From: an uncultured Rhodospirillaceae bacterium
GTDB lineage: Bacteria > Pseudomonadota > Alphaproteobacteria > GCA-2731375
Direction of reading: 5' to 3'
Length of the DNA stretch: 64,000 nt
Assembly: GCA_964344935.1 (NCBI GenBank)
Contig: CAYFPL010000001.1
Span: 1,276,303-1,340,302, forward strand
Positions 1,878 to 30,113 of the stretch are shown here, one piece after another. The position numbers and the translations under genes are program-made. Below the pieces are notes generated by a model. It saw only the letters and a program-made list of their open reading frames with translations. It did not search any database and was not told the origin of the DNA. Positions within the stretch are counted from its first letter, which is position 1, and the number at the start of each line of letters is the position of its first letter.

Positions 1878-3494
1878 TCAGTAATCTCGCGCCGTGCCCT
1901 CTGTCGTAACGAAGCCTTCCACTAAATCGGCTTCGATCGCGTCTTGTGACCGGTCAGTCGGCTTGCCGAATCCGCCGCCGCCAGCCTCAATCAGGGTGAT
2001 GCGGTCGCCGGGCTGCAGTTCGTAGTGGCCCTTGGGGTCGACCGTTACATCGTTGATCCGGTGTTCCCTGGGCCGGCCCGGTTCGCCGCCCATGAGGCCC
2101 AAGGGTGGAAAGTCGGTGCGGTTAGCCATGCAGAAGACATTCATGATGTGACCGCTGTCGTTGCGGATCACCACCTCCTGGCCCAGGCCGCCGCGAAAGG
2201 CGCCCGCGCCGCCTGAATCTGGCAACAGGTGTTTGTGGGTCACCGTGGTCGATGTCAGAGTCTCCCAAACTTCCACCGGCACCACGGCCATGTTGGAGGG
2301 GCCCGGCGTGGTCTCGGCCCCGTCGCGGCCGTCCAGGGCACCGAAGCCGCCGGAGGCGAAATAGATGGTTGAAACGTCATGGCCGTCCCGGTGCCGGCCC
2401 TGAAAAGTCATCAGGTCGAGCATGCCGCAATCGGCCTGGATCTGTTCCGGCACTGCTGGCGCCAGGGCGCCGAATACCAGGGGCGAGACGAAATGGCCGA
2501 TCATGTGCCGCGCCCCGGTGGGCGAGGGCGGCTGCGCATTCAAAAGGCAGCCTTCCGGCGCCGTCACGGTAACGGGCACCACGCTGCCGCCATTATTGGG
2601 CAACTCCGGTGCGGTCAGGCACTTGATGGAGTAGAGCACCATGGCCTTGGTGTAACAGAACGGTACGTTGATGCCCTGGCGCACGCCGGGCGCTGTACCG
2701 GCGAAATCCACAGACAGGGCATTGCCCGCAACCTGGACCTTGCAGGCCAGGGTCAGGGCGCCCTCGACCCCTTCGATCTGAATGGCGTTTTCATAATCGC
2801 CGTCGGCCATTCTCCCGATCGCCGCCCGCGTCGCCTGTTCCGAGCGGCCGCGGATCTGCCCCGAGAGGGCCTGGAAGTCGGGCAGGCCGTATTCATGCAG
2901 GAAGGCCATGAGCATGTCATCACCCGCCTTCACGGCGGTGACGTTTGCCATCAGATCGCCGATCACTTGGTCCGGTGCGCGCACATTATTGCGCACCAGT
3001 TCGATAATGAAATCGTTGCGCCGGCCCGCTTCGAACAGCTTGCAGATCGGCAAGCGCAGGCCTTCGTGATAAATCTCCCGCGCCGCTGCGCCAAAGCCCA
3101 GGCCGCCTACATCCGGCAGGTGGGTGATGGAGATCACGTAGGCGACGATGCGGCCCTCGTGAAAGACCGGGCGCATAACGTTGATGTCAAATGTATGACC
3201 GGTGCCAAGCCAGGGATCGTTGGTGATTACGACATCGCCGGGCCGCAGGGTATCGGCGGGGAATTTGGCCAGCATGTGGGCCAAAGTGGCAGGCGCAGTG
3301 CCCATGAACACCGGCACGCTGTAGGTACCCTGGGCCATCAACTCGCCGTCCGCGTCCAGCAGCGCTACAGTCAGATCATAGCTTTCGCTGACGATGGTGG
3401 AGAACGAGGTGCGGACGAGGGTAGTGACGATCTCGTCAGACACCGCGACCAAGCGGTCCCACATGATGCCCACGCTGACAGCATCCAGGCTCAT
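1878..3494 (-). CDS. Hydantoinase B / oxoprolinase family protein (second paralog)
   Basis: 538-aa ORF (NDPWLGTGHTFD, HLPDVGG). Convergent with the plus-strand HyuB-like gene, 16-bp gap. Start ATG overlaps the stop of the upstream hyuA-like gene (ATGA at 3491-3494). Confidence 0.85.
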   Translation of the reverse strand: MSLDAVSVGIMWDRLVAVSDEIVTTLVRTSFSTIVSESYDLTVALLDADGELMAQGTYSVPVFMGTAPATLAHMLAKFPADTLRPGDVVITNDPWLGTGHTFDINVMRPVFHEGRIVAYVISITHLPDVGGLGFGAAAREIYHEGLRLPICKLFEAGRRNDFIIELVRNNVRAPDQVIGDLMANVTAVKAGDDMLMAFLHEYGLPDFQALSGQIRGRSEQATRAAIGRMADGDYENAIQIEGVEGALTLACKVQVAGNALSVDFAGTAPGVRQGINVPFCYTKAMVLYSIKCLTAPELPNNGGSVVPVTVTAPEGCLLNAQPPSPTGARHMIGHFVSPLVFGALAPAVPEQIQADCGMLDLMTFQGRHRDGHDVSTIYFASGGFGALDGRDGAETTPGPSNMAVVPVEVWETLTSTTVTHKHLLPDSGGAGAFRGGLGQEVVIRNDSGHIMNVFCMANRTDFPPLGLMGGEPGRPREHRINDVTVDPKGHYELQPGDRITLIEAGGGGFGKPTDRSQDAIEADLVEGFVTTEGTARDY

Positions 3495-5557
3495 TCTCCG
3501 CCCTCCAGTTCCGCGACCAGGTTGCCTTGTGGATCGACGCGCACCCGATCGCCGGGGCCGATCACAACGGTCGACTCCCGCTCTTCGATCAGGGCCGGGC
3601 CGGCAATCTCCGCGCCAGTGGCCAGTTGATAGCGGTCATAGACCGCCGCCGACTGGAACCCCCCGTCAAAATAGGCCTGCCGGTTGCCCTTGGCGATCAC
3701 GGCATCCGCGCCATTGGGAGCCGCCGTGAAAAGGGCTGGTGCAGGTGCGACGGCCTCCACCTTCCAGGTTGTGATGACCAGCGGCGCATCCAGCAAAGCA
3801 GCGCCATACACCGCCGCATAGGACTCACGAAACAATGCCGGGATATCGGCAAGTTCGGCACCGGCGGGCAAGCTGACTTCGATCTCGTGCCCCTGACCGT
3901 GATAACGCATGTCCAGACGGCGCAGCATCTCGGTCACCTGATCCGTAGCCCTTAAGGGCGCACCGGCCTGTTGTTCCAGGGCCGCGAAAGTGTCTTGAAA
4001 GTCCGCCGCCGTCAGATCGTCGAGAAAAATCTGTCGGGTGCGGGCTACTTCGAAAGTCAGGGGACTGGCCAGCAGCCCCAGGGCCGACATCACGCCCGCT
4101 GCCACCGGAAAGACCACCTTAGCGATGCCCAGTTTGCGCGCCACGCCCAGGGCATGCACCGGGCCGGAGCCACCGAAGGCGATCATGGTGCTGTCGCGGT
4201 AGTCAAAGCCCCGTTCCGAAGCGTGGATACGAAAGGCGCGGGCCACGTCTTCGTCGATGATCTCGTGGATACCCCAGGCCGCTCTTGCAAGCGACAGATC
4301 CAAGGGTGCTCCCACCGATGCGTCGATGGCATCTTCCGCCGCTTTTCGGTCCAGGGCCATGGCGCCGCCAAGGAAGAAGTCAGGGTCAAGGTAGCCCAGG
4401 GCCAAGTTGGCGTCCGTCAGCGTGGAGCATTCACCGCCCTGGCCATAACAGGCCGGTCCTGGATCGGCGCCGGCGCTTTGCGGCCCCACGGCTATGGCGC
4501 CGCGCACGTCAGGCTGGGCGATGGACCCGCCACCGGCGCCGATTTCGATCATATCGATCACCGGCGCCCGCACCGGCATGCCGCTGCCCGCCTTAAAGCC
4601 ATGCACCCTTGCCACTTCCTGGTGATATTCCTTGATTGCCCGGCCGCCGCGGATCAGGGCGCCCTTGGCCGTGGTGCCGCCCATATCGAACGACAGCACC
4701 TTGTCGCAAGCGAGGGCCCGACTGTGATGGGCTGACATCTGCGCCCCCGCCGCCGGGCCGGATTCAATGACGCGAACAGGAAAGCGCCGGGCGGTTTCCG
4801 GTGTCAATGTGCCACCACTGGATGACATGACATAAAGACCACCAGAGAATCCTAATTCCGCCAAGCCATGTTCCAGACGCCCCAGATAGTCGTCGAACAT
4901 GGGCTGGGTAAAGGCATTGAGCGCCGTGGTGGTGAAGCGCTCGAACTCTCGCCATTCGGGACAGACCTCGCTGGAAACGGAAACCGCGAGATCAGGGAAA
5001 TCTTCCGCCGCCATCGCCGCCAAGGCCTGTTCCTGCTCAGTATTGGCATAGCTGTGCAATAGACAGATGGCCAGGGAGGTGATGTTGTGTTCCTCGACCA
5101 ATTGGCCAAGATTGCGCCGCGCCTCCTGCAGATCCAACGGCACCTCGATGGTGCCATCGTAGTGACAGCGCTCCGTGACCTCGGCCCGCATGCGTCTTGG
5201 CACGATTGGATCGGGGAATGTCAGGCGAAGATCGAAGACGTCGTAGCGTTTCTCCTGCCGCATATCCAGGATGTCACGGAAACCCTTGGTCGTCAGCATG
5301 CCGGTGCGGGCGCCCTTGCGTTCGATTACCGCATTGGTGACCAATGTGGTGCCGTGGACGATCTCGCGCACCGCCGCCATGCTCACATCCTCCCGCACCA
5401 GCAGGGTCCGCGTTCCCTCAAGTACCGCACGGGACGGATCATCAGGTGTCGTCAGTTGCTTGTGAATGGCCAATCGCCCGCCCCGTTCGTCGTAGAGCGC
5501 GAAATCGGTGAAGGTGCCGCCGATATCGACGCCCAGTCTGTAGGGGCGGTCGGTCAT
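3491..5557 (-). CDS. Hydantoinase A / oxoprolinase family protein (HyuA-like)
   Basis: 688 aa. N-terminal RLGVDIGGTFTDFAL ATPase motif of the hydantoinase_A / ASKHA fold. Forms an A/B pair with 1878-3494. Confidence 0.85.
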   Translation of the reverse strand: MTDRPYRLGVDIGGTFTDFALYDERGGRLAIHKQLTTPDDPSRAVLEGTRTLLVREDVSMAAVREIVHGTTLVTNAVIERKGARTGMLTTKGFRDILDMRQEKRYDVFDLRLTFPDPIVPRRMRAEVTERCHYDGTIEVPLDLQEARRNLGQLVEEHNITSLAICLLHSYANTEQEQALAAMAAEDFPDLAVSVSSEVCPEWREFERFTTTALNAFTQPMFDDYLGRLEHGLAELGFSGGLYVMSSSGGTLTPETARRFPVRVIESGPAAGAQMSAHHSRALACDKVLSFDMGGTTAKGALIRGGRAIKEYHQEVARVHGFKAGSGMPVRAPVIDMIEIGAGGGSIAQPDVRGAIAVGPQSAGADPGPACYGQGGECSTLTDANLALGYLDPDFFLGGAMALDRKAAEDAIDASVGAPLDLSLARAAWGIHEIIDEDVARAFRIHASERGFDYRDSTMIAFGGSGPVHALGVARKLGIAKVVFPVAAGVMSALGLLASPLTFEVARTRQIFLDDLTAADFQDTFAALEQQAGAPLRATDQVTEMLRRLDMRYHGQGHEIEVSLPAGAELADIPALFRESYAAVYGAALLDAPLVITTWKVEAVAPAPALFTAAPNGADAVIAKGNRQAYFDGGFQSAAVYDRYQLATGAEIAGPALIEERESTVVIGPGDRVRVDPQGNLVAELEGGE

Positions 5558-5567
5558 GGCTGTCTCG

Positions 5568-7148
5568 TCACCGGTTATCCGGCAGGACGTCGACTGCGTC
5601 GCCGATGCCTCGTTCCCGCAACTCGTGGCGGGCGATCTCGTTTTTGGTCATGGTGCGGGGGAACTCCTCGACGAATTCGATGTAGCGCGGCACCTTGAAA
5701 AAGGCAATGCGGTCCTTGCACCATTCCACCAGTTCGCCCGGTTCAACCTCCGCGGCGGTTTGCACATAGGCCTTGATGTCTTCTTCGCCTATTTCCGAGG
5801 GCACGCCGACCACGGCGCAATCGACCACAGCCTCGTGGGCCGTCATGGCTTTCTCTACTTCAAAGGCGGAGACGTTCTCGCCGCGGCGGCGGATCCAGTG
5901 GGCCTCCCGACCGACAAAATAGACGAAGCCGTCCTCGTCCAGATAGCCCAGATCGCCGCTGTGGTACCAAAGGTTCTTCCAAGCAGCCAGGGTCTCATTG
6001 GGCTTGTTGATGTATTCCATCATGTAGGTATTGGGCACCTTGGGGCGGAGCAGGATCTGCCCGGTGGTATTGGCGGGCACAGGGTTGTCGTCTTCATCCA
6101 CGATCAGAACCTCGGCCCAGCCGTGGGGCCGGCCGCAGGAGCCGAGGCGACGGTCGAAAGTCCGTTCGCTGCAGATCAATACGCCCATCTCGGTCATGGA
6201 ATAGACCTCCATCATCGGCGTGCCGAAGCGTTCCTCGAACTCGTCACGCAGATCCCGGCGCACCTGACCCGCCGCGATGCCGACACCGATCCTAACCTTA
6301 TGGTCCATGTCCTTGTTCGACTTGGGCGCCCGCAGCAGCACGGCCATCATGGTGCCCAGGGGATCGATGATGGTAACGCCGTATTTACGGATTGTGGTCC
6401 AGTAGTTGGAGGCCGAGAACCATTTTTCCATGACCCCGGTCATGCCGTGATAGAGGGGGCCGGTGATGGCAAACTGCTGGCCGCCGATATGGAAGAAATG
6501 GGAATTGGCGAAATGCACGTCATCTTCGGTCGCTTCGGCGATATCGCCGTACCTGATGGCGGCAGCGATGTAATAGAGGTGTGAAACGAGCACTCCCTTG
6601 GGCATGGATGTGCTGCCGCCGGTGTAAACGATGCACATGGGATCCGCCGCGGCGACCTGGGCTTCGGGCAGGCTATCGTCGTCACCAACCAGGTCGTCGT
6701 ATGGCAAAGCGCCATCGACGGCGGTTTCGTCGCCCAGGACCAGAACCGTGGGTGCCACGGTCAATTCCGGCCTGGCGGCGATATAGGCGCGCGTCAATTC
6801 CTCGTCCACCACGAACAGCTTAGCGCCCGTGTCGTTCAGGGAATAGCAGAGGTCATCTTTGACCAGGGAGACGTTGAGGGCAGCGTAGACGGCGCCGATC
6901 TTGGCGCAGGCGAACCAGATCACCGCCTGCTCGATCGAATTGTACATCAGGGTTGCGACCACATCGCCCTTGCCGATGCCGTGTGCAATCAGACGGTTCG
7001 CCACGCGATTGGATAGCTCGTGGGCGTCGCCATAAGTCAGGGTGACGTCCCGGCAGATCAGGAACGGTTTCTCCCTCAATTCGGCCCGCATAATGATCAG
7101 GTCCCGCAAGGTTTCCGTATGGGGCGTGCGCCCCATAATGTCGATCAT
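5568..7148 (-). CDS. AMP-dependent synthetase/ligase (acyl-CoA synthetase family)
   Basis: AMP-binding signature YTGGSTSMPKG. Start chosen at ATG 7148 (MIDIMGRTPH), preceded by GAGGGTGGG. The longer ORF to 7187 would overlap the upstream gene by 26 nt. Confidence 0.8.
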   Translation of the reverse strand: MIDIMGRTPHTETLRDLIIMRAELREKPFLICRDVTLTYGDAHELSNRVANRLIAHGIGKGDVVATLMYNSIEQAVIWFACAKIGAVYAALNVSLVKDDLCYSLNDTGAKLFVVDEELTRAYIAARPELTVAPTVLVLGDETAVDGALPYDDLVGDDDSLPEAQVAAADPMCIVYTGGSTSMPKGVLVSHLYYIAAAIRYGDIAEATEDDVHFANSHFFHIGGQQFAITGPLYHGMTGVMEKWFSASNYWTTIRKYGVTIIDPLGTMMAVLLRAPKSNKDMDHKVRIGVGIAAGQVRRDLRDEFEERFGTPMMEVYSMTEMGVLICSERTFDRRLGSCGRPHGWAEVLIVDEDDNPVPANTTGQILLRPKVPNTYMMEYINKPNETLAAWKNLWYHSGDLGYLDEDGFVYFVGREAHWIRRRGENVSAFEVEKAMTAHEAVVDCAVVGVPSEIGEEDIKAYVQTAAEVEPGELVEWCKDRIAFFKVPRYIEFVEEFPRTMTKNEIARHELRERGIGDAVDVLPDNR

Positions 7149-7161
7149 TATCCCACCCTCG

Positions 7162-9177
7162 CTATTCGAACTGTCCGGCGAGGCCAACGGCGCCGGCCTG
7201 TTTCAGCGAGTCTATCTCGTCGTCGGCGAGGGACAAGACCCGGGCTAGGACCTCGCCGTCCTCATCACCCAGGATCGGTGCCGGCTTGTGGACGGCGGGC
7301 CGGCGGCCATCAACCCGCCAGGGGGCTGCAACCAATTCGTCCTCGCCGGTGAATGGATGCACAGACGGGACCCAGCCGCTGCAGTCGGCGAAGACCGATG
7401 CGCCGTCGGTTTCATCCAACTCCAGCATGTCGGTGTAATCGCCATCCCGCTCGCTGCAGGCTGCAACGATCTCGGCACGGCTGGCGCCATCCAAGGCCTG
7501 ACGCAGCGCCAACTTGTCTGAAAAGACCGCAACCGGAAAACTCACGGCGATATAACTGCCATCGTCGGCCGCCAGGATATCGCCTACGGTCTCCTCGTCC
7601 GGCATGGGCGTTCCTGCGAGGGTCGCCGCTGCTTCGATCTGGGAAACATCGAAAGCGCGGCCCTTCCCGTCGGCATGGACAGCCAAGGCGCCGGCAAGTA
7701 TGCCCATGGCGCCAAAGGCGGCGGCATTGGGATCCGACAGTGAGAAGGTCGGCGAGCCCAGGAATTCATCGCCTTCGCGGACCTGATCCTCGGCCCCGCC
7801 CAGGGCGCTCAAGACCAGACCATAAGAACGCAGGGCCTCGACACTGGAACCCCGGCCCGGGCCGCTCATGGACATCTGCACCAGTTTCGGATTGGCGTGC
7901 GCCAGGGCGGCTGCATCCAGTCCCAGGCGCTCCATGGTACCCACGGTGAAATTTTCGATCAGCAGGTCCGATTTCGCGGCAAGTTCTAGGGCCAGCCGCA
8001 AACCTTCCTCATGCTTCAGGTCCAGGGTCAAGCCGGATTTGTTGCGGTTCAGGCTATGGAAATAGAGCGAAGATTCGATCCTTGTCTTTTCGTCCATCTT
8101 CTTGCGCAAATGCTCCAGACCCCGGGTGCGGTAGAGATCGAAACGGCCCGGCGCTTCGACCTTGATTACGTCAGCGCCCAGGTCGGCGAGAATCTGGCCG
8201 ATCATGGGACCGGACCAGACCCAGCAGAGTTCCAGGCACCTGAGCCCGGCCAGCGGTCCGTCACCCCCGGCCATGTCCGCCCATGGATTCGATCCGCCCA
8301 CGCCGCTGCCCTGTTCGTGAATCTGAAACGGCATGCAGGGGACATCATCGACAATGAAACTGTCCCTGAAGACATCGCGCTCGGCCGCCTCCGCCTGGCT
8401 ATAAACCGGCGCGATGACGGCGCCATGAGCCAGGCCCTGGCGCAAGAGCTGATCGCGGCTGAACTGGGCCAGCGTGTCGCGCATCAGATCGTCCGCCTCT
8501 GCACTGTCCCGGGCCAGGGTGAAGGGATCTTGGAAGGCCTCGTCCTTGGCCCAGTCCGGATCGCCGATGGCCATGCGGATTTGCTGCCAATCCCGCCGGG
8601 AGCGGCCCAAAAGCGCCACATGGCCGTCCTTGCAGGGATAGAACCCCATAGGGAAGATGCCGCCATGATCAACACAGATGTGGCCATTACGCCGCCAGCT
8701 ACGGACCATCTCTTCCCGGCCGCCGGAATTCTGTAGGGAGAATACGCGGATCACATCGGCCGCCGAGACGTCGTACTCGATTTTTCCGTCGGCACCGTCA
8801 CGGCGGCGCCAGGCCTCCGCCAGGGCCAGGATGACGCCATAGATGCCGCACCATTTTTCGGGCATGTCGGCGGGCAATGGTCGGCCGGGGCCGTCCCTGT
8901 ATCCAATCACCGAGGCCGCACCGCCAACGGCACTGGCCAGGACGCCGCTGCCCCGACAGCCGACCTGGAAATCCCAGAGTCGGATCACACACGCAGCCTC
9001 GGACGGCTGATTATCGGCGACGATGGCAATGTCGGCCTGGTCCGGGTCCTGAGTGACGGAACCGCCTAACGCCTCAAGCCAATGCCGGGCATAATGGACG
9101 GACCGGTTGCCGGTCGATACTGCAATGCTTGCCGCCGCATCCAGCGGCAATTTCCTCGTTGGGCTCGCCGGGTTCAT
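7162..9177 (-). CDS. Family III CoA-transferase (CaiB/BaiF-like), unusually long tandem two-domain protein
   Basis: The C-terminal ~370 aa form a complete CaiB/BaiF-like domain (LRCLELCWVWSGPMIGQILADLGADVIKVEAP...). The N-terminal ~290 aa resemble the central and C-terminal part of a second CoA-transferase III domain. ORF track start 9183 is TTG. ATG at 9177 lies 2 nt after the upstream gene's stop. Confidence 0.75.
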   Translation of the reverse strand: MNPASPTRKLPLDAAASIAVSTGNRSVHYARHWLEALGGSVTQDPDQADIAIVADNQPSEAACVIRLWDFQVGCRGSGVLASAVGGAASVIGYRDGPGRPLPADMPEKWCGIYGVILALAEAWRRRDGADGKIEYDVSAADVIRVFSLQNSGGREEMVRSWRRNGHICVDHGGIFPMGFYPCKDGHVALLGRSRRDWQQIRMAIGDPDWAKDEAFQDPFTLARDSAEADDLMRDTLAQFSRDQLLRQGLAHGAVIAPVYSQAEAAERDVFRDSFIVDDVPCMPFQIHEQGSGVGGSNPWADMAGGDGPLAGLRCLELCWVWSGPMIGQILADLGADVIKVEAPGRFDLYRTRGLEHLRKKMDEKTRIESSLYFHSLNRNKSGLTLDLKHEEGLRLALELAAKSDLLIENFTVGTMERLGLDAAALAHANPKLVQMSMSGPGRGSSVEALRSYGLVLSALGGAEDQVREGDEFLGSPTFSLSDPNAAAFGAMGILAGALAVHADGKGRAFDVSQIEAAATLAGTPMPDEETVGDILAADDGSYIAVSFPVAVFSDKLALRQALDGASRAEIVAACSERDGDYTDMLELDETDGASVFADCSGWVPSVHPFTGEDELVAAPWRVDGRRPAVHKPAPILGDEDGEVLARVLSLADDEIDSLKQAGAVGLAGQFE

Positions 9178-9179
9178 AC

Positions 9180-10472
9180 TCAATCAGTAGCAAGCGGCAA
9201 GGGCACGGGCCCGTCGGATTTTGATGGCAGAGCAGTTACAGCCGTGCCGCGCGCCGACAACATATTCACTTGGTTGCGCGCCTCCACCTCCAGATCGACG
9301 AATTTCACGGCACCTTCGTCCCGTTTGCCCGTTACCTTGCCCCGCCACCACAGGGTATCGCCAACCATATTCGGTTTCAGTACGTCGACGGCCAATTTAT
9401 GCAGGAAACCGTGATCGCCGATCCAGTTGGTCAGCATGTGCTGCGCCCAGGCGATACGCTGGGGGCCTACATCGTAGGCTCCCCCCATGCCCACGTCCCG
9501 CCCGGTAGAGGCTTCCAGATGCCCGCGGCCAGCGGAATCCTTGGCCCCGGTTTCCTTGTTGATGTGATAATCCGCATGGCGGCGCCGATAACGGACCACG
9601 TCACCGTGCACGCCGCCGTAATGCAGCGCCCCCTGGGCGGCGGCATACCAGCCGATGATATCCATGATGGTCAGTGGACCCTTGATCACCGGCGGCACGT
9701 CATCGCCGATCTGCACATCCTCCCAGTAGAGCGGATCCGTGCCCCGCCGGGGCTCCGCCAGGATTTGTTCCTCGATATCCGCGAGTTCCGCCGGCTCGTA
9801 ACGATGGGGGACATGTCCCTTGGGTTCCTTGCCATCCTTGCGCTGACTGCCATCGCCCCGCGGCGTGCGGGCGCATTTGCCTACCGCGAAGGCGATCAAG
9901 GCGCCTTGTTGGTTATGGTATTTCAATTCGCCGGTCTGCAGAGCCCATTTGCCGAAACGGCGGCCGGATTTCACTTCCTGCTTGGTCAGCATTACATCCA
10001 CCTTGAAACTGTCGTCCAGGCGGATGTGGTCATACCAAGTCCATTCCGTGCCGGCATAGATCCATTGCACGCCGGCCAACTTGGGCGCGACGATGGTGGA
10101 ATCCACCGCATAAAGAATGCAGGGTGGCGCTACGATGCCCCCTGTAGGTCCGGCGGCAGCGTAATCCGCATCGAACCACAACGGGTTGTTGTCGCCGACG
10201 CCCCAGGCAAAATGCCGGATCGCATCCTTCGTCGCGGCTTCGATCCATTGCATGCGGTCGCGCCGCAGGGGTACGCCGATCAGTTCGGCGGCGGCGGCTA
10301 GGGTTTCTTCGTTGATCTTTCCCCAGGTCAAGTCAATCAGATCTCGTCCCGTACGTGCGACATGATTTAAGTGGCGGAATGCGCCCGCCCTCTTTGGGGC
10401 GGTGCGCAATAACGTCGATGGCGTAATAACCCTCAAAGTCTCCCGAATGGGAGCGCCGTTGTCAATCCACAA
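9180..10472 (-). CDS. MaoC-like (R)-specific enoyl-CoA hydratase/dehydratase, double hotdog fold
   Basis: Two hotdog-like halves (FAS1-like dehydratase N-domain plus MaoC C-domain). Stop TGA abuts the start of the CoA-transferase. The 5' end is uncertain: the ORF track starts at a TTG, with internal TTG/ATG candidates. Confidence 0.65.
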   Translation of the reverse strand: MWIDNGAPIRETLRVITPSTLLRTAPKRAGAFRHLNHVARTGRDLIDLTWGKINEETLAAAAELIGVPLRRDRMQWIEAATKDAIRHFAWGVGDNNPLWFDADYAAAGPTGGIVAPPCILYAVDSTIVAPKLAGVQWIYAGTEWTWYDHIRLDDSFKVDVMLTKQEVKSGRRFGKWALQTGELKYHNQQGALIAFAVGKCARTPRGDGSQRKDGKEPKGHVPHRYEPAELADIEEQILAEPRRGTDPLYWEDVQIGDDVPPVIKGPLTIMDIIGWYAAAQGALHYGGVHGDVVRYRRRHADYHINKETGAKDSAGRGHLEASTGRDVGMGGAYDVGPQRIAWAQHMLTNWIGDHGFLHKLAVDVLKPNMVGDTLWWRGKVTGKRDEGAVKFVDLEVEARNQVNMLSARGTAVTALPSKSDGPVPLPLATD

Positions 10473-10475
10473 TAA

Positions 10476-10510
10476 TATTGTCTATAGACAATAATTGTCG
10501 TCGCAATTAT
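10476..10510. promoter_or_regulatory. Putative operator: 18-bp perfect palindrome TATTGTCTATAGACAATA (10476-10493) overlapping a second inverted repeat ATAATTG-N6-CAATTAT (10491-10510)
   Basis: Read directly in the 43-bp AT-rich gap between the dehydrogenase gene end (10516) and the start of the long minus-strand operon (10472). Core TTGT-N6-ACAA resembles GntR/FadR-type boxes. Confidence 0.45.
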
Positions 10511-10515
10511 CTCAC

Positions 10516-11448
10516 TTACTCGCTCTCCAAAACCGCCCGAATATCGGCGGGATCCACTTCGATTTCCACCCCGGCACGCTCTTGTTGCAGGATCATGGCG
10601 GAGCGGGAATCCCTATCCCCCCAGCCCCGCCCCAGGGCCTCGGTCATATCGGCCACGGTGGCATTGATCAGACGCATGGGCACACCGAATTCACGCCCCA
10701 GCTCCGCCGCCAGGCTGACGTCTTTATGAGCCAGTTTCAGAGCAAAGTCGGCCGGGTCGTAGTTGTTAATCAGGTAATGCTCACCCAAGCTATCGAAAGT
10801 ACGCTGACGGCCCCGCGCCCCCTGGCGCACGGCCTCCCATAGGGCCAGGGGTTCCACGCCCGCTTTGACACCAACGGAGAAAACTTCCGCCAGGGCGGTC
10901 TGAATAGCATAGCCGGCGGCATTATGAACCAGCTTGGCAATGGAGCCGGCGCCGATGGGCCCGATATAGCGCACCTGATCGCCCAAGGCGTCCAAGGCTG
11001 CCCGGTGGGCGTTGAAGATTGCTTCATCACCTCCCACCCAGATTGCCAACTTACCCGAGGCCGCCCCCTTGGGCCCGCCGCTGACCGGTGCGTCGAGGCA
11101 GTGCAAACCCTTTTCGGCCATGACGCTGTGGACTTGACGGATCGCGGTCGGGGAATTGGTCGACAGATCGAACAGCACCGTGCCGGGCGCCATGCCCGCG
11201 ATCAGTCCGTTCTCGGCATCCAGGGCGACGGCTTCCACCTCTGGTGGGCCAGGCAGAGAGGTCAGGATGACATCCGAGGCCGCCGCCAATTCCCGCGGGC
11301 TGTCAGCCCATGCCGCACCCGCGGCCAAGTGGGGTTCGGCGACTTGGCGGTGAATATCGTGCACGGTTGTTTCGAAGCCGGCCTTGATGATGTTCCTGGC
11401 AAAGGATGCCCCCATAGTGCCCAGGCCGATAAATCCGATCTTTGCCAT
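10516..11448 (-). CDS. NAD(P)-dependent 3-hydroxyisobutyrate dehydrogenase family oxidoreductase (MmsB/GarR-like)
   Basis: N-terminal Rossmann motif MAKIGFIGLGTMG. 310 aa, typical beta-hydroxyacid dehydrogenase length. Confidence 0.85.
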   Translation of the reverse strand: MAKIGFIGLGTMGASFARNIIKAGFETTVHDIHRQVAEPHLAAGAAWADSPRELAAASDVILTSLPGPPEVEAVALDAENGLIAGMAPGTVLFDLSTNSPTAIRQVHSVMAEKGLHCLDAPVSGGPKGAASGKLAIWVGGDEAIFNAHRAALDALGDQVRYIGPIGAGSIAKLVHNAAGYAIQTALAEVFSVGVKAGVEPLALWEAVRQGARGRQRTFDSLGEHYLINNYDPADFALKLAHKDVSLAAELGREFGVPMRLINATVADMTEALGRGWGDRDSRSAMILQQERAGVEIEVDPADIRAVLESE

Positions 11449-11451
11449 GGC

Positions 11452-11760
11452 TTAGTCCTGCCCTTCCAGGACTTCCAAGGCCACACGGCCCGCATTCACT
11501 GCCGTGGGCCAGCCGGAATAAAACGCCAGATGGGTTATCAAGCCGAACAGTTCTTCCTTTGTGACGCCGTTGTCGATGGCGCGGGCCATATGCCCTTTCA
11601 GTTCCTCCGTTCGGTAAAGGGCGATGAGCACCGCCACGGTGGCCAGGCTGCGGTCCCGTTTTGAAAGTTCGGGCTGCTCCCAGACATCGCCGAACAGCAC
11701 CTCGTCACGCAAATTCCCCAATTGCGGGATGAGATCGTAGGGTGTTTTCTTCTCTGCCAT
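11452..11760 (-). CDS. Carboxymuconolactone decarboxylase (CMD/AhpD-like) family protein
   Basis: 102-aa protein with a CMD-family core. RBS AAGGA upstream. 3-nt gap to the downstream dehydrogenase gene. Confidence 0.75.
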   Translation of the reverse strand: MAEKKTPYDLIPQLGNLRDEVLFGDVWEQPELSKRDRSLATVAVLIALYRTEELKGHMARAIDNGVTKEELFGLITHLAFYSGWPTAVNAGRVALEVLEGQD

Positions 11761-11782
11761 AGTTCCGATCCTTTTTCGTTGT

Positions 11783-12589
11783 CTAGCTCGTGGCGTCCTT
11801 GGGCGGGACGTCCAATCGCACCACCGCGCCTTCCAAATCCGGGCGGGGTGCGGGATAGCGCTGCATCACGAGGGGGTCGTGCCCCGGCACGATATGGGCA
11901 TTGTCCTTGGCCAAACTGCGCAGATTGCGGTGGCTTTCCAGCATCTGGAAAAGATCTTCGTGAGTCAGGAACGGTGTCTCCTGTTCGAAGCTCTCGTAAT
12001 AGTGGGCCACGTCGGAAGCCAGGACGACCGGTCCACGCGGACTGCCGGCGCGGACCGCCTGCATGCCGCGGGTGTGGCCCGGCAAATGATGCACGCTTAC
12101 ACCCGGGGCGATCTCGTCTTCGCCGTCGTGGAACACCACCCGATCCCCGTAGATTAGGCGGACCATGTCGATGACATCGTCCAGGCGGAAGGAATGGCGC
12201 AGGGCCGGGTGGGTCATGGCCCGGCCGGTCACAAGCGACATTTCCGCATCCTGGATGTGAAACCGCGCCTTGGGAAACTGCTCCAAATTGCCGGCATGGT
12301 CGTAATGCATATGGGTGATGATCACATCCTCGATTTCGGCGGCGTCGATATCCAGCATGGCCAAGCCTTCCGTTGGCGAACGCAAATATGTCCGACCCCG
12401 GCGCTCGCCTTCCTCGCGGCCGTAGCCTACGTCGACCACGATCGTGCGCTGCTCGTTGCGAAGGACCCAGATGAAGTAGTCCATGGCCATCGGCGCATCA
12501 TGGGGATCGCCATGCACGAACATGGTGCCGCGCTCCCCCATACGCTCGCCATACTTGATGGCAAATATTTCATAGCGGTCGTCCGCCAT
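11783..12589 (-). CDS. MBL-fold metallo-hydrolase (N-acyl-homoserine-lactonase-like)
   Basis: HxHxDH motif (ITHMHYDHAGN). Start at ATG 12589 (MADDRYEIF), preceded by GGGAGG. The 573-aa ORF in the track is an unsupported N-terminal extension. Confidence 0.75.
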   Translation of the reverse strand: MADDRYEIFAIKYGERMGERGTMFVHGDPHDAPMAMDYFIWVLRNEQRTIVVDVGYGREEGERRGRTYLRSPTEGLAMLDIDAAEIEDVIITHMHYDHAGNLEQFPKARFHIQDAEMSLVTGRAMTHPALRHSFRLDDVIDMVRLIYGDRVVFHDGEDEIAPGVSVHHLPGHTRGMQAVRAGSPRGPVVLASDVAHYYESFEQETPFLTHEDLFQMLESHRNLRSLAKDNAHIVPGHDPLVMQRYPAPRPDLEGAVVRLDVPPKDATS

Positions 12590-12652
12590 GCGCTTTCCTC
12601 CCTTGTCGGCTTGGCATTTAGTGTAACATCCTTCGCGAGCAGGGGGTCGAAT

Positions 12653-13624
12653 ATGCGGATCATCATCTATGGTGCCGGCGGCATCGGCGGCGTTATCGGC
12701 GCGCAATTGTTCCAGGGCGGCATCGATACGCTGTTGATTGCCAGGGGCGACCACCTCAAGGCTATTCAGGACAAAGGACTGCACTACCGCACGCCACATC
12801 AAGACGTGACGCTGCCTATTGACGCCGTGGGCCATCCCAGAGAGATCGACTTCCGCGAAGATGACGTGGTCATCCTGACCATGAAGACCCAGCACACCCG
12901 GGATGCCCTGGACGATCTGCGCGCCGCTGCAGGCGACGGCATTCCCCTGTTCTGCTGCCAGAACGGGGTGGCGAACGAGCGTATGGCGGCCCGCCGTTTT
13001 CGAAACGTGCATGCCCAAATGGTCTATTTGCCTGCCACGCAACTGGAACCGGGCACAGTGGTGACACACGCCGCCGCCACAATCGGGGTGCTGGACGCGA
13101 GCGTTTATCCCACGGGCAGTTCCAATCTGGTGGAGGAGGTGACGGCCGCCCTGGACAGCAACGGCTTCTCCGCCCGGCCCAACGCAACGGTGATGCGTTT
13201 CAAATACGGCAAGCTGATCATGAACCTTGGCAACGCCCTTTCTGCCGTCGCCCCGCCGGGAGAAGAGACAAAGGCAATCCGGGCCCAGTTGCGGGCGGAA
13301 GCCGAGGCGGTGTTCGAAGCCGCGGGCATCGACTGCGCCAGCCAGGAGGAAGAGCGGGCCCGTCGCGGTGATCTGATGAAATCGGCGGCCGTCGCTGGGC
13401 AGGAACGGGTCGCCGGCTCGTCGTGGCAGAGCCTGGCCCGGGGCACCGGCAATATCGAGGCGGACTTCCTGAATGGCGAAATTGTTCTTCTGGGCCGACT
13501 GCACGGCATCCCCACCCCCGCCAACCTAATCCTGCAGCACCTGGCCAACGACCTGGCGGCCAGGGGTGGTGAACCACAGAGCATTCCTTTGGCGGAAGTA
13601 AAGCGGCAGATCGACGGCGCCTAA
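12653..13624 (+). CDS. panE: 2-dehydropantoate 2-reductase (ketopantoate reductase family)
   Basis: MRIIIYGAGGIGGVIG Rossmann N-terminus of the ApbA/PanE family. Start ATG 12653 after AGGGGG. Divergent from the MBL-hydrolase gene across a 63-bp intergenic region. Confidence 0.8.
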   Translation: MRIIIYGAGGIGGVIGAQLFQGGIDTLLIARGDHLKAIQDKGLHYRTPHQDVTLPIDAVGHPREIDFREDDVVILTMKTQHTRDALDDLRAAAGDGIPLFCCQNGVANERMAARRFRNVHAQMVYLPATQLEPGTVVTHAAATIGVLDASVYPTGSSNLVEEVTAALDSNGFSARPNATVMRFKYGKLIMNLGNALSAVAPPGEETKAIRAQLRAEAEAVFEAAGIDCASQEEERARRGDLMKSAAVAGQERVAGSSWQSLARGTGNIEADFLNGEIVLLGRLHGIPTPANLILQHLANDLAARGGEPQSIPLAEVKRQIDGA

Positions 13625-14826
13625 GGCGGCTCCGCGCCCATTTCCAAATGCAGCTTCTCGCCATCGTAGGGGTGGGCGAGGGCCACCACTTCATCCAATT
13701 CGACGCCCAAGCCTGGAGCAGTCGGCGGGATGACATAGCCGTCTTGCCACTGGATCGGTGTCTTCAGGATCTCAGCGTGAAAGCCATCCCAGCGTTCGAT
13801 GCCTTCCAGGATCAGGAAATTTGGCGAGCAGGCCGCGATCTGGATATTGGCCGCCCCCACCACCGGACCGCAGTAGAGGTGTGGCGCGATCTGGGCCTGA
13901 TGAGTTTCCGCCATCCCTGCGATCTTTTTCGCTTCGAGCAGGCCGCCGACCCGGCCCAGGTTCATTTGTAGGATGGATGCCGCTTCCGCCTGCAGCACTT
14001 GGGCGAATTCGTACTTGGTGGTCAGGCGCTCTCCAGTGGCGATGGGGATGGAAGTAGCCTGGGCCACCTGTGCCATGGCCTGGGGATTGTCGGGCGGCAC
14101 CGGCTCCTCGAACCACAACGGCTCATAGTCCGCCAGGCGGCGGGCCATGCGTTTCGCGCCAGACACGGTGAACTGGCCGTGGGTGCCGAACAGTAGATCC
14201 GCCCGATCGCCCACGGCCTCTCGCAGGCGGCGGCAAAAGAGCTCCGATCGCTCCAAGTCGGGCAAACTTGGCTGATGTCCGTCATAGACCGTATAAGGCC
14301 CAGCGGGATCGAACTTCAGGGCCGTGAAGCCCATAGCCAGATATTCGGCCGCCCGCGCCGCCGCCAGGTCCGGGTCGTCATAGACATTCGCGCCGTCGGC
14401 TGGGTCGGGATACACGGGACCGTCGGCGGGATAGATATAGGTATAGCTGCGCAAACGTTCATGCACCTTGCCGCCCAGCAGGTTATAGACCGGCTGTTCA
14501 ACCGCCTTGCCAACGATGTCCCAGCAGGCCATCTCCAGACCGCTCAGAACACCCATGAGCGAGACATCCGGCCGCAATGTATAACCCGCGCCATAGACGC
14601 GCCGCCACAAGGCCTCGATCCCAAAGGGGTCGTGTCCTTCCACATGGCGGGCAAAGACGTCATCGATCATGGCGACCATGGCCGCCGGCCCAAAGGTGGC
14701 GCCATAGACCTCGCCGAGCCCGCTGATACCGTTGTCAGTCTCCAACTTCAGGAAGATGAAATAGCGCCCGCCGAAGCCAGGCGGCGGATTGCCGACGACG
14801 AAGGTCTGCAGGGATTGGATTTTCAT
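13621..14826 (-). CDS. Mandelate racemase / muconate lactonizing enzyme family protein (enolase superfamily)
   Basis: MR_MLE family similarity (e.g. LKFDPAGPY, EEPVPPDN). Start ATG 14826 (MKIQSLQTFVV). Convergent with panE, overlapping by 4 bp. Confidence 0.8.
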   Translation of the reverse strand: MKIQSLQTFVVGNPPPGFGGRYFIFLKLETDNGISGLGEVYGATFGPAAMVAMIDDVFARHVEGHDPFGIEALWRRVYGAGYTLRPDVSLMGVLSGLEMACWDIVGKAVEQPVYNLLGGKVHERLRSYTYIYPADGPVYPDPADGANVYDDPDLAAARAAEYLAMGFTALKFDPAGPYTVYDGHQPSLPDLERSELFCRRLREAVGDRADLLFGTHGQFTVSGAKRMARRLADYEPLWFEEPVPPDNPQAMAQVAQATSIPIATGERLTTKYEFAQVLQAEAASILQMNLGRVGGLLEAKKIAGMAETHQAQIAPHLYCGPVVGAANIQIAACSPNFLILEGIERWDGFHAEILKTPIQWQDGYVIPPTAPGLGVELDEVVALAHPYDGEKLHLEMGAEPP

Positions 14827-14897
14827 GACGGCATCACTTGTTCTATCAGCAAAATTAAGGGGACAATGTTCTCTTAGCAGCACCTAGGAGCCCGGTC

Positions 14898-17800: not shown

Positions 17801-18356
17801 AAAGGTGGCGCGGCACATATCGGAGGAGGAGTTCAATTCCTACCTTATGTATCCGGATGTCTTCACTGCCTATGCCGCGCACCGACGCGAGTACGGGCCC
17901 GTTGACGTGTTGCCGACCCCCACCTTCTTTTATGGCATGCAACCGGACGAAGAAGTCACCGTGGATCTGGAAGCCGGCAAGAGCCTGGTGATCCGTCTGC
18001 AGGCCATGGGCGAGGTCGATGAAGATGGCTATGTGCGTGTCTTCTTTGAACTAAACGGACAGCCCCGCACAATTCGCATCGTCAACCGGCAGGTCGCCGC
18101 CAATGTGGAACGACATCCCCAGGCAGATGACAACAACCCCAACCACGTCCCCGCACCGATGCCGGGCGTCGTCGGCACAATCGCCGTTAATACCGGTCAG
18201 GCCGTGGAGGTGGGAGATCTGTTGCTGAACATCGAAGCCATGAAAATGGAGACCGCGATCCGCGCCGCTCGGTCCGGGACCATCGCCGCCATCTCGGTGA
18301 AATCCGGCATGTCTGTGGACGCCAAGGACCTGCTGCTTGAGTACGCCGCCGACTAG
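14898..18356 (+). CDS. pyc: Pyruvate carboxylase
   Basis: 1152 aa. N-terminal biotin carboxylase domain (KIMVANRGEIAIRVLRA), a central carboxyltransferase domain, and a C-terminal biotinyl domain with the EAMKMET biotin-attachment motif. RBS AGGAGC. Confidence 0.95.
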   Translation: MIQKRKISKIMVANRGEIAIRVLRAANELGLGTVAVFAEEDKLALHRFKADEAYLIGQGLGAIRAYLSIEEMIRVAKQARADAIHPGYGFLSENPDFAEACAEAGIVFVGPTPEIMRRLGNKVSARRVAVAAGTPVMPATGPLPDDMDEVRSLATEVGYPVMLKASWGGGGRGMRVIESESELEAEVESGRREAQAAFGNGEVYLEKLVRRARHVEVQLLGDHHGNVVHLFERDCSVQRRNQKVVERAPAPFLDDQRREELCQAALRLARESGYVNAGTAEFLMDADSGEFYFIEVNPRIQVEHTVTEEVTGIDIVKAQIRIAGGAKIGDVAASGVPAQDDIRLRGHALQCRVTTEDPEENFVPDYGRITAYRGANGFGIRLDGGTAYSGAVITRHYDSLLEKVTAWAPTPEEAIARMDRALREFRIRGVTTNLTFVEGLINHPKFRAAEYTTRFIDETPELFKLSHRRDRATRLLRFIANVTVNGNDEVAGRPEPNTDRTPLLPEHLTETPPEGTKQLLDRMGAEKFAAWMLAQDRLLLTDTTMRDAHQSLLATRMRSYDIVRAADAYAHNLPELFSLECWGGATFDVAMRFLNECPWERLRRIRARVPNILLQMLLRGANGVGYTTYPDNVVRTFVQQAADSGMDLFRVFDSLNWVENMRVAMDAVLESGKLLEGAICYTGDMLDPDRDKYDLNYYTTMARELAAAGSHIIGIKDMAGLARPDAIAKLVKVLKEETGLPVHFHTHDTSGIAAASVLAAAEAGVDAADLSMDSLSGLTSQPNLGSVAGALRGGGRDPGLDAGQIRAFSDYWEGVRAQYAAFESDLRFGASEVYLHEMPGGQFTNLKEQARALGLEERWHEVARAYAEVNDMLGDIVKVTPSSKMVGDMALSMVSADLSRADVENPDKEIAFPESVRSYFRGELGQPPGGFPETLQAKVLAGETALTERPGANLPPADLVALRREAEKKVARHISEEEFNSYLMYPDVFTAYAAHRREYGPVDVLPTPTFFYGMQPDEEVTVDLEAGKSLVIRLQAMGEVDEDGYVRVFFELNGQPRTIRIVNRQVAANVERHPQADDNNPNHVPAPMPGVVGTIAVNTGQAVEVGDLLLNIEAMKMETAIRAARSGTIAAISVKSGMSVDAKDLLLEYAAD

Positions 18357-19141: not shown

Positions 19142-19281
19142 GGATGTCTCCCCACTCTTGATTTATTGTCCCTTACACAAAATGCGGTCATTGGTCCGGG
19201 CCCTGCACCCGTCGCTTTGACTTGCGGCCCCTGATAGAGATGCCCATCATATAAGCCAAACAACAAGCACGAGGAAACATC

Positions 19282-20997: not shown

Positions 20998-21016
20998 ACG
21001 CAAGGACTTACGGCAA

Positions 21017-21886: not shown

Positions 21887-21920
21887 TAATAGCCAATCTG
21901 AAAATCAGGGAGAGACCGCC

Positions 21921-22238: not shown

Positions 22239-22248
22239 GCGCAGTGCC

Positions 22249-22956: not shown

Positions 22957-22958
22957 GC

Positions 22959-23534: not shown

Positions 23535-23539
23535 GGCCG

Positions 23540-28860: not shown

Positions 28861-28868
28861 GAGGCACT

Positions 28869-30047: not shown

Positions 30048-30113
30048 GGGAGATCCCTCCACGGCGTCACGCCGGCCCAACCCAAAGGCCAGGCCGGCAC
30101 AACATCGGGACGC

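Follow-up and report, generated by a model that had tools for sequence, protein, structure and literature searches.

A family III CoA-transferase subunit naturally fused to a shortened partner, found mainly in marine Alphaproteobacteria

Results

The gene and its neighbours

The window, by which we mean the whole stretch of 64,000 nucleotides that was analysed, carries an uninterrupted open reading frame on the minus strand (7162..9183 in the ORF list) encoding a two-domain family III CoA-transferase (Table 1). The product is 671 aa long when counted from the ATG at 9177 and 673 aa when counted from the TTG at 9183, which in the start-codon context overlaps the stop of the upstream gene. Residue numbers are counted from ATG 9177 throughout. 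A preliminary description of this DNA had called the frame unusually long at ~670 aa, and the length stands: neither a frame change nor a stop codon occurs between the N-terminal half (N-half) and the C-terminal half (C-half).

The gene is flanked by two others on the same strand, both overlapping it. The upstream neighbour encodes a double hot-dog protein, whose sole PDB relative is an (R)-specific enoyl-CoA hydratase (E 0.0016) and which is a putative (R)-specific enoyl-CoA hydratase/dehydratase. The downstream neighbour encodes an AMP-forming acyl-CoA ligase, for which all best NCBIfam matches fall below their cut-offs. The transferase itself matches seven NCBIfam equivalog models, all scoring far below their cut-offs, so that no substrate can be assigned from them. 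None of the named single-domain equivalogs (Frc, YfdE, CaiB, succinate-glutarate, mesaconate, Mct) is reached, and the best score, for formyl-CoA transferase, is 153 bits versus 442. A substrate was sought through NCBIfam, PDB and the wider neighbourhood, and none was assigned; a literature search found nothing that combines hydantoinase, MaoC and family III CoA.

Table 1. Features of the transferase locus, in the order of the minus strand. Coordinates are window positions.
Feature	Coordinates	Strand	Basis or remark
Upstream double hot-dog (FAS1_DH_region/MaoC-like) gene	9180..10472	-	Pfam; stop overlaps transferase TTG
Whole gene, two-domain family III (CaiB/BaiF-type) CoA-transferase	7162..9183	-	ORF list, PF02515, homologues, AF2
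N-half residues 8-72, degenerate Rossmann (large) domain remnant	8962..9156	-	AF2: beta1-alphaA and two strands
N-half residues 73-160, central helices of family III fold	8698..8961	-	Pfam profile match begins here
Glu107, at canonical catalytic Asp position	8857-8859	-	aligns with YfdE Asp173
N-half residues 161-270, highly conserved small domain	8368..8697	-	51% of columns >=90% conserved
Invariant His171	8665-8667	-	aligns with YfdE His233 (GNxH loop)
Residues 271-306, last N-half strand and linker between halves	8260..8367	-	14% of columns >=90% conserved
C-half residues 307-525, complete Rossmann-type large domain	7603..8259	-	Pfam profile positions 1-218
Catalytic Asp482 in SDPNA	7732-7734	-	D482 in 71/71 sequences; aligns with 4ed9 Asp
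C-half residues 526-600, decayed small domain	7378..7602	-	no Pfam match when 509-671 scanned alone
C-half residues 601-671, C-terminal strands and helices back to large domain	7165..7377	-	24% of columns >=90% conserved
Stop codon TAG of transferase gene	7162-7164	-	
Downstream AMP-forming acyl-CoA ligase gene	5568..7187	-	Pfam AMP-binding; overlaps transferase 3' end by 26 nt

Both halves belong to family III

An HMM domain scan, proposed as a check in the preliminary description, matched the CoA_transf_3 profile (PF02515) to both halves far beyond chance. The whole protein scores 244.9 bits over two stretches (gathering score 23.3). In separate scans the match covers profile positions 133-332 of 366 for the N-terminal 306 aa (residues 76-279; E 6.4e-17, 62 bits) and positions 1-218 for the C-terminal 365 aa (residues 309-535; E 4.8e-55). 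Each half is thus a family III member by profile in its own right, and the two-domain fold of the family, a Rossmann-type large domain with a small domain, is present. The profile positions agree with the earlier reading of the N-terminal part as the middle and late portion of a second domain. The motif of the type LxLxxVxxGPxxxxxLADLGAxVIKVE, placed near residue ~300, lies at residues 309-341 as LAGLRCLELCWVWSGPMIGQILADLGADVIKVE. Two other claims hold in part. The C-terminal ~370 aa are canonical in their large domain and its motif, but the small domain (~526-600) has diverged too far for Pfam. No second N-terminal motif had been seen, but the N-terminal 75 residues contain what appears to be a degenerate beta1-alphaA remnant, SIAVSTGNRSVHYARHWLEALGGSV.

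Direct similarity between the halves is not significant in either BLASTP (E 5.3) or hhalign (E 0.02-0.12), the weak alignments being collinear, and duplication therefore cannot be shown from this protein alone. It is shown via Pfam and PDB profiles: the N-half profile matches eight different family III structures collinearly, and all Foldseek matches listed for the N-half model are family III proteins. AF2 predicts the full chain with a pLDDT of 92 and a pTM of 0.94. For the N-half alone these values are 76 and 0.55, and the pLDDT of the His171 loop is below 50; in the models, the N-half appears to depend on its partner.

Conservation along the chain

In the N-terminal remnant (residues 8-72) 17% of columns are >=90% conserved, and AF2 gives the secondary structure E18-20, H25-37, E50-54 and E63-68. 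The N-half lacks about 75 residues of the CoA-nucleotide-binding segment found in canonical enzymes; its residue 76 aligns with residue 153 of P0136, a relative with two full domains. The remnant profile has weak matches that in 24 of the 25 top cases lie at residues ~8-48 of canonical or two-domain relatives, while hhalign of the remnant (8-75) against the start of its own C-half gave E 0.74, no better than a reversed control. These weak but positionally consistent matches suggest that the remnant is homologous to the beta1-alphaA start of the family III fold.

The central helices of the N-half (residues 73-160) include a nearly invariant EKWCG motif, with E107 in 70 of 71 aligned sequences. 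The fused forms show little or no variation at E107, K108, W109 and C110, nor do the split forms described below at the first three of these. Asp104 was considered as the N-half counterpart of the catalytic Asp and rejected; it varies between D and E, is H or K in split forms, and the profile alignment gives Glu107 instead. The near-invariance of Glu107 and the following KWC exceeds what a dead site would need, and could indicate a second function. Downstream, the small domain of the N-half carries the loop WRRNGxxxxEHGGIFPMG, which holds His171, and the motif CxDGHVALLGRSRRDW. In YfdE the equivalent His233 is supplied by the partner subunit and faces the catalytic Asp. Within the linker region that follows, pLDDT drops to 59-72, and it is at the equivalent of these residues that stand-alone small subunits end.

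The C-half large domain contains the motifs WSGPMxGQxLADLGAxVIKVE, RFDLYRTRG and NRNK. It matches PDB sequences at E 1e-31 to 1e-20 and has 52% of its columns >=90% conserved. The conserved Asp at the start of the long central helix, characteristic of family III, is found in the C-half only. Nowhere in the protein is conservation lower than in the C-half small domain (3% of columns >=90% conserved, 21% gaps), which is without a conserved His/Gly loop; 12 of the 71 aligned members, those of ~565 aa, have lost residues 531-578 altogether. The C-terminal residues 601-671 align weakly to the C-termini of YfdW and BbsF.

Fused and split homologues

Homologues of similar length, whose existence the preliminary description had left to be checked, are plentiful: at least 120 are listed, of 564-693 aa and 52-73% identity. 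The same fused gene in the same gene context was found in 58 of 74 fetched loci, one of which (L015) was assigned as fused by hand, its two tblastn matches overlapping by 5 nt. Both halves are under strong purifying selection. The closest relatives come from metagenome-assembled genomes of marine Rhodospirillaceae and Alphaproteobacteria, and an identical NCBI protein (P0001, 100%) is located on a 1.6-Mb contig. All split loci, and 56 of the 57 fused ones, have a double hot-dog gene within 4 kb; an AMP-ligase orthologue occurs within this distance in 51 of the 57.

Elsewhere the halves are separate genes. In four acidimicrobial loci (Acidimicrobiia) they are non-adjacent ORFs within one cluster; at one of these, L061, the N-like gene encodes 312 aa and the C-like gene 386 aa. 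In five other loci, from Betaproteobacteria and Sphingobium aquiterrae, including the cultured strain DSM 106441, the halves are adjacent in reversed order, C then N, and in different reading frames; the S. aquiterrae pair lies at 9911-11143 and 11140-12093 of locus L070. Split relatives comprise a large subunit of ~375-386 aa and a trimmed small subunit of ~300-320 aa, and an exhaustive search gave 298-323 aa for stand-alone small subunits. P0121 (331 aa, 61% identity) was rejected as a stand-alone N-half, being a fused gene with a frameshift. Since the separate ORFs stay in the same cluster, in two arrangements, the halves are functionally linked.

Comparison with characterised enzymes

To our knowledge, DddD and PtmU4 are the only characterised two-domain members of the family. 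DddD is about 830 aa long and has two full-size domains. The window protein resembles it in having tandem CaiB-like domains in one chain and, as predicted, a single required catalytic Asp, and in being a marine bacterial enzyme; it differs in its length (671 aa) and in its context of hot-dog and AMP-ligase genes. DddD is the outgroup to the other two-domain enzymes (PMC6006322).

The layout of the PtmU4 group is closer. In these single chains of ~600 aa a short CoA-transferase-like domain comes first and the C-terminal domain begins near residue 285-300, as in the window protein, and the catalytic Asp is in the C-terminal domain only (Asp430 in PtmU4, Asp482 here) (PMC6006322). Like other two-domain enzymes, the window protein combines tandem CoA-transferase-like domains with a poorly conserved linker (271-306) and has its catalytic Asp in the C-terminal domain, with Glu in the N-domain. 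The gene for PtmU4 adjoins an acyl-CoA synthetase gene (PMC6006322), and an acyl-CoA synthetase gene within two genes, as in thioacid cassettes, is also present in the window, where the AMP-ligase gene is immediately downstream of the transferase. Similarity to PtmU4, QbsK, PdtI and YtkF does not extend over both domains, however: with approximate test sequences, OCR-derived from the paper's alignment and covering about its first 340 columns (PMC6006322), the N-domains gave no match and the generic start of the C-domain ~10 bits. Membership of the PtmU4 thioacid group was rejected, the OCR-derived sequences aligning at a generic motif only. Unlike the PtmU4 group, the family of the window protein is nearly always paired with a double hot-dog gene, and it occurs mainly in marine Alphaproteobacteria, whereas the thioacid group is found in Actinobacteria, Beta- and Gammaproteobacteria. 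No sulfur-carrier genes were noted beside the family, and formation of a thioacid by the window protein is not implied.

Uncharacterised family III proteins of ~740-830 aa with two full domains, such as P0136, are collinear with the window protein across the junction. One of them, 822 aa long, shows 34% identity over residues 159-663 (E 2e-82) and retains the segments that the window protein lacks. These proteins share the RSRRDW motif of the small domain and, by eye, have Glu at the catalytic position of the N-domain. They keep the complete N-domain Rossmann motif LADLGAEVIKVE and the canonical HPxxxP loop of the C-small domain, both of which are lost in the window protein.

BbsEF, the heteromeric succinyl-CoA:(R)-benzylsuccinate CoA-transferase (PDB 9fn0), is 22-25% identical to the window protein. 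Its subunits BbsE and BbsF are unfused, full-length products (~410 aa each) of separate genes, whereas the window protein is a single chain and its split relatives have one trimmed subunit. Frc/YfdW, YfdE, CaiB, SUGCT and Mct have the same fold and Asp motif as the C-half, but are ~400-aa homodimers with two equivalent active sites; their His loop appears to be supplied in trans by the N-half in the window protein. The CaiB/CaiC/CaiD system offers a functional analogy only, as a set of CoA-ligase, family III CoA-transferase and CoA-ester hydratase. The third-best NCBIfam match of the window ligase is crotonobetaine/carnitine-CoA ligase (295 bits versus a cut-off of 651), but the window hydratase has a hot-dog fold and that of the Cai module a crotonase fold, and no carnitine-specific evidence was found for the window module.

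Discussion

The transferase gene is a genuine fusion, natural and conserved, in which a family III CoA-transferase subunit is joined to a trimmed partner. It has the known but little-studied two-domain layout, and is neither a sequencing error nor a new type of enzyme. From the sequence, the trimmed N-terminal partner is probably no longer catalytic.

Canonical family III enzymes consist of two identical, interlocked chains of ~400 aa. Conservation in the window protein runs cross-wise, with the C-half large domain and the N-half small domain kept and the N-half large domain and the C-half small domain decayed. We therefore consider it likely that the protein is a pseudo-heterodimer contained in a single chain of family III fold, in which one active site is live and the other has been lost. 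Two different subunits would have been fused and one of their two composite sites retained, built from the C-half large domain (Asp482 and the CoA-binding motifs) and the N-half small domain, whose His171 loop would close over the Asp482 site. The second site would have lost its parts, the Rossmann segment of the N-half and the small domain of the C-half, through trimming or decay. Within one chain the halves would pair with each other like the canonical dimer, which the pTM values of the full chain and of the N-half alone, together with the cross-wise conservation, support indirectly. Asp482 would form the acyl-anhydride and CoA-thioester intermediates, and the N-half, though non-catalytic, would be essential. 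A pseudo-dimeric single-chain transferase with one degenerate site had already been suggested; the split genes, the cross-wise conservation and the restriction of the invariant Asp to the C-half support it, with the amendment that the lost site did not belong to the N-half alone but was divided between both halves.

Pairing could instead occur between chains, the N-half of one polypeptide interlocking with the C-half of another, so that a domain-swapped dimer would hold two live sites. Each chain would still account for as many live sites as in a single-chain pseudo-heterodimer, and only the quaternary structure would differ. Swapping would fit the obligate dimers and large interface of canonical family III enzymes, and also the linker, which is short at ~20-35 residues, poorly conserved and modelled with low confidence; threading two interlocked rings in one chain could be hard to fold. 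The monomer model is nevertheless compact, its pTM of 0.94 falling to 0.55 for the N-half alone, and the split versions need just a 1:1 heterodimer; we regard swapping as unlikely. Somewhat less probable still is that both halves are catalytic, the N-half having a second, non-canonical site that acts through Glu107 or Cys110, possibly in hydrolysis, lyase chemistry or acyl transfer. The conservation of the EKWC residues in fused forms, and of EKW in split forms too, would fit such a site, and DddD and PtmU4 show that two-domain members can go beyond CoA transfer. Against it, ~75 residues are missing from the N-half within the Rossmann segment responsible for CoA-nucleotide binding in canonical enzymes, the C-small domain that would cover the site is the least conserved and is deleted in 12 of 71 members, and an Asp-to-Glu substitution cripples PtmU4, lowering its activity 125-400-fold (PMC6006322).

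Two further explanations are highly improbable. An unrelated regulatory or substrate-binding domain of ~300 aa with a chance resemblance to family III would account for the lack of significant similarity between the halves, but is hard to reconcile with a Pfam match of E 6e-17 across 200 residues or with the collinear structure matches and the family III Foldseek matches listed for the N-half. A frameshift or assembly error joining neighbouring genes, the fusion artefact that the preliminary description had allowed for, might be suspected from the occurrence of the halves as separate genes in some lineages, and at least one database entry, P0121, shows the opposite error of a fused gene shortened by a frameshift. 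Yet the fusion recurs, its junction conserved, at 58 independent loci and in more than 100 protein clusters of 52-73% identity, the reading frame is open throughout, the identical protein exists on a 1.6-Mb contig, and both halves are under purifying selection; an artefact is thereby excluded in practice.

As to function, gene context points less firmly to a CoA-recycling module of three enzymes: the AMP-ligase, which would prime a carboxylic acid by attaching CoA; the double hot-dog hydratase, which would act on an enoyl- or 3-hydroxyacyl-CoA by hydration or dehydration; and the transferase, which would move CoA from the product onto fresh substrate. A more speculative idea, which we think improbable, is that the trio is a dedicated three-enzyme machine in which the transferase not only transfers CoA but also carries out a second, coupled reaction, its substrate being a carboxylate abundant in the sea. 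By analogy with DddD, this could be elimination or lyase chemistry, or, by analogy with thioacid formation by PtmU4, a non-carboxylate nucleophile could attack; the Glu107-Lys-Trp-Cys110 patch might contribute to it from the 'dead' half.

For annotation, the long gene is best kept whole and without a frameshift flag, and the ~300-aa 'hypothetical' genes beside CaiB-like genes in Acidimicrobiia, Sphingobium and Betaproteobacteria are to be read as subunits of the same enzyme. In many marine Alphaproteobacteria the gene is tightly linked to those of a hot-dog hydratase and an acyl-CoA ligase, an indication of an uncharacterised module of carboxylic-acid catabolism. Read as a one-site pseudo-heterodimer, the family would be a natural example of an obligate homodimer with two shared sites turned into an asymmetric one-site enzyme, in which the parts of the lost site were shed from both partners, and the partners could then be fused, split or reordered. 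Being compact and having a cultured host in S. aquiterrae DSM 106441, it would be a tractable model.

Domain architecture and natural occurrence of the fusion

The transferase gene is an uninterrupted open reading frame with two start options: a TTG, whose last two bases are shared with the upstream gene's TGA stop (673 aa), and the ATG at 9177, two bases past that stop (671 aa; used for residue numbers). The whole protein matched Pfam CoA_transf_3 (PF02515; 366 positions, cut-off 23.3 bits) at 244.9 bits in two stretches. Scanned separately, both halves matched, residues 76-279 covering profile positions 133-332 (E 6.4e-17) and residues 309-535 positions 1-218 (E 4.8e-55); a scan restricted to residues 509-671 gave no Pfam match. 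In a PDB sequence search, residues 307-535 aligned to the N-terminal two thirds of ~30 family III structures (best E 2e-31), and residues 171-268 and 602-664 aligned weakly to small domains and C-terminal tails of such structures, respectively. Since the Pfam and PDB searches agree, the preliminary description of a long ORF with a CoA-transferase-like C-terminal part and the middle and late part of a second domain is correct. Scores against the NCBIfam equivalogs for formyl-CoA, oxalate, glutarate, mesaconate and carnitine transferases were all far under their cut-offs.

That description had left room for a fusion artefact. The best 120 homologues, chiefly from metagenome-assembled genomes of marine Alphaproteobacteria, are 564-693 aa long and 52-73% identical, with coverage mostly >94%, and carry no annotation more specific than 'CoA transferase', 'CaiB-like' or 'hypothetical'; another 69 loci came from scanning one genome per species. 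Mean column identity in a 71-sequence alignment is 60%. Homologues of this length, together with the many invariant residues in both halves of the alignment, rule out an artefact.

Fused, split and reordered forms

Each half and the neighbouring proteins were searched by tblastn in all 74 homologous loci, L015 being assigned by hand. The N-half and C-half are fused in that order in 58 of them. Four loci, from Acidimicrobiia, encode the halves separately and non-adjacently; in one of these, L061, the order is N-like gene (312 aa), luciferase-like, hot-dog, AMP-ligase, TetR and C-like gene (386 aa). The order is reversed in five loci, which belong to Hyphomonadaceae, Betaproteobacteria and a cultured strain, Sphingobium aquiterrae DSM 106441; here the C and N genes are adjacent but form separate ORFs, each in its own frame. 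In S. aquiterrae they share a 4-bp stop/start overlap, and a hot-dog gene follows directly. One half lies past the contig end in the remaining seven.

An exhaustive phmmer search of 1.84 billion representative proteins with the N-half returned only 18 matches at E <= 1e-30, among them fusions 679 and 711 aa long and no fewer than six true stand-alone proteins, whose lengths span 298-323 aa; canonical enzymes of 350-410 aa and two-full-domain proteins of 740-830 aa matched more weakly. The 331-aa database protein P0121 was rejected as a stand-alone N-half: a frameshift cuts this fused gene short, and its tail reads the C-half start out of frame. Because they are fused, split or reordered by lineage, and always in the same cluster, the N-half and C-half are two subunits of one enzyme.

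Probable retention of one composite active site

The family III monomer consists of a Rossmann-type large domain and a small domain, and in the homodimeric YfdE the catalytic Asp173 and His233 (GNxH loop) are supplied by different subunits (PMC3720670; PMC9196870). Conservation along the chain is strikingly cross-wise between the halves (table), and residues 531-578 are wholly deleted in 12 of the 71 aligned members, those ~565 aa long. Asp482 (SDPNA) in the C-half is invariant in this alignment. When 19 sequences, N-halves together with stand-alone small subunits, were built into a profile and this was aligned to solved structures, YfdE His233 fell on His171, which is invariant among fused proteins and present in >=90% of sequences once split forms are added, and YfdE Asp173 fell on Glu107. 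Asp104, also considered as the N-half equivalent of the catalytic Asp, is variable. In PtmU4, replacing Asp by Glu lowers activity 125-400-fold (PMC6006322).

The cross-wise conservation and the placement of Asp482, His171 and Glu107 indicate that one composite site, of C-half large domain (Asp482) and N-half small domain (His171), has been kept, and that the parts of the second, N-half large domain and C-half small domain, appear to have been shed. With the split and reordered genes, this supports the earlier proposal that a single chain forms a pseudo-dimer in which one site is degenerate; the loss of one site stands, refined in that the lost site would be divided between both halves.

At the 'dead' N-half catalytic position, Glu-Lys-Trp-Cys (residues 107-110; window 8848-8859) is almost invariant among fused proteins. 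Split small subunits retain Glu, Lys and Trp, and some of them have Val or Ala in place of Cys. The patch seems conserved beyond what a purely structural role would obviously need.

Coordinates of the operon members in the window and of transferase segments, with the share of columns >=90% conserved in the 71-sequence alignment
Feature	Position	Strand	Remark
Hydantoinase/oxoprolinase B	1878-3494	minus	operon member
Hydantoinase/oxoprolinase A	3491-5557	minus	operon member
AMP-forming acyl-CoA ligase	5568-7187	minus	operon member
Two-domain CoA-transferase	7162-9183	minus	operon member
Double hot-dog protein	9180-10472	minus	operon member
HIBADH-like dehydrogenase	10516-11448	minus	operon member
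CMD-family protein	11452-11760	minus	operon member
N-half Rossmann remnant	residues 8-72		17%
N-half central helices	residues 73-160		40%
N-half small domain	residues 161-270		51%
Linker	residues 271-306		14%
C-half large domain	residues 307-525		52%
C-half small domain	residues 526-600		3%; 21% gaps
C-terminal tail	residues 601-671		24%

In the alignment with P0136, a two-full-domain relative, N-half residue 76 falls on residue 153, so the N-half lacks ~75 residues of its Rossmann part. AF2 predicted three strands (18-20, 50-54 and 63-68) and one helix (25-37) at the N-terminus. A profile of residues 1-75 gave weak matches (i-E 1e-3 to about 1), 24 of the best 25 falling at residues ~8-48 of canonical or two-domain relatives, for example 'LRVVEVNDNSIAASYAGYLLASLGAQVIK' in the database protein P0199; its direct comparison with the C-half start was not significant (E 0.74). 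In our reading, 'SIAVSTGNRSVHYARHWLEALGGSV' is what remains, in degenerate form, of beta1-alphaA; no other part of this anatomy is as insecure.

AF2 modelled the full chain from the 71-sequence alignment with pLDDT 92 and pTM 0.94, confidence being lower only at residues 161-180 and in the linker (290-310). Foldseek matched this model to SUGCT, Frc, YfdW, BbsEF and CaiB (target-normalised TM ~0.7). The N-half by itself reached pLDDT 76 and pTM 0.55; the fold matches listed for it were all family III, led by BbsEF (E 2e-10), and superposed poorly overall. This drop, and that of the His171 loop to pLDDT <50, fits an N-half that would be ordered only against its partner.

Comparison with known two-domain enzymes

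DddD was the sole characterised two-domain member before the study of PtmU4, which is 619 aa with its His-tag (597 aa by our subtraction), has its C-domain from about residue 285-300 with Asp430 inside it, and produces thiocarboxylic acids with the adjacent acyl-CoA synthetase PtmA3 (PMC6006322). The window transferase shares the two-domain layout, the C-terminal Asp and a neighbouring ligase gene. However, approximate OCR sequences of PtmU4, QbsK, PdtI and YtkF from a supplementary alignment match its family profile only at the generic C-domain start, which on present evidence places it outside the PtmU4 subgroup. Across the domain junction it is clearly homologous by alignment to an 822-aa two-full-domain protein (34% identity, residues 159-663, E 2e-82); the latter keeps a complete N-domain Rossmann motif and a canonical C-small-domain loop. 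No two-domain member was among the PDB matches of sequence, profile or fold searches.

Operon and wider neighbourhood

The gene sits in a co-directional operon of tightly packed or overlapping genes. Hot-dog and transferase genes occur together in every split locus and in all but one of 57 fused loci (56), and a ligase gene is nearby in 51 of 57 fused loci; a luciferase-like monooxygenase gene is often near as well. The only solved relative of the hot-dog protein is an (R)-specific enoyl-CoA hydratase (E 0.0016). We infer a CoA-recycling module in which the ligase would prime the acid with CoA, the hydratase would act on the CoA ester, and the transferase would hand CoA on to the next substrate molecule, the same logic of ligase, transferase and hydratase on a CoA ester as in CaiC/CaiB/CaiD. 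The nearest match of the operon's hydantoinase pair was caprolactamase, far under the cut-off.

The hot-dog ORF spans 430 aa from a TTG, and its true start may lie ~45 codons further downstream, because orthologues are annotated with lengths of 382-388 aa and residue ~48 is where many of the alignments start. In locus L037 (7495-9986) a ~1.3-kb insert, perhaps a mobile element or else an error of assembly, divides the gene (residues 48-206 at 7495-7971, 202-427 at 9306-9986). The HIBADH-like and hot-dog genes are adjacent in the window (10472-10516); close relatives carry 3-6 kb of extra genes between them (L004 3921-6856; L008 2315-8715), in L004 Meth_synt_2, a second CMD and a luciferase-like monooxygenase. 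The window has luciferase-like genes at other places (20942-21886 and 24745-25764).

Three paralogous hydantoinase/oxoprolinase A+B sets are found in the 64 kb (22-1861, plus; 1878-5557 and 47856-51552, minus), the first convergent with the operon's pair, as in loci L004, L006 and L014. The 573-aa ORF at 11783-13504 (minus) is called too long: its family match (metallo-beta-lactamase fold) is confined to the C-terminal ~300 aa, so the real gene probably spans ~11783-12700. A 1152-aa pyruvate-carboxylase-type protein (14898-18356, plus), with biotin carboxylase, carboxyltransferase and biotinyl domains, is divergent from the adjoining enolase-superfamily gene (13621-14883, minus). Positions 18353-30080 form a mixed catabolic island with a crotonase, two amidohydrolases, a protocatechuate 3,4-dioxygenase beta subunit, a fumarase/cycloisomerase-type lyase, a polysaccharide-deacetylase-like protein and a protein matching Pfam Urate_ox_N (urate oxidase N-terminal domain).

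The transferase, an enzyme that occurs in split and reordered forms too, is of some value as a compact model for the passage from a symmetric dimer with two shared sites to an asymmetric enzyme with one, and it marks an acid-catabolic module that is so far uncharacterised.
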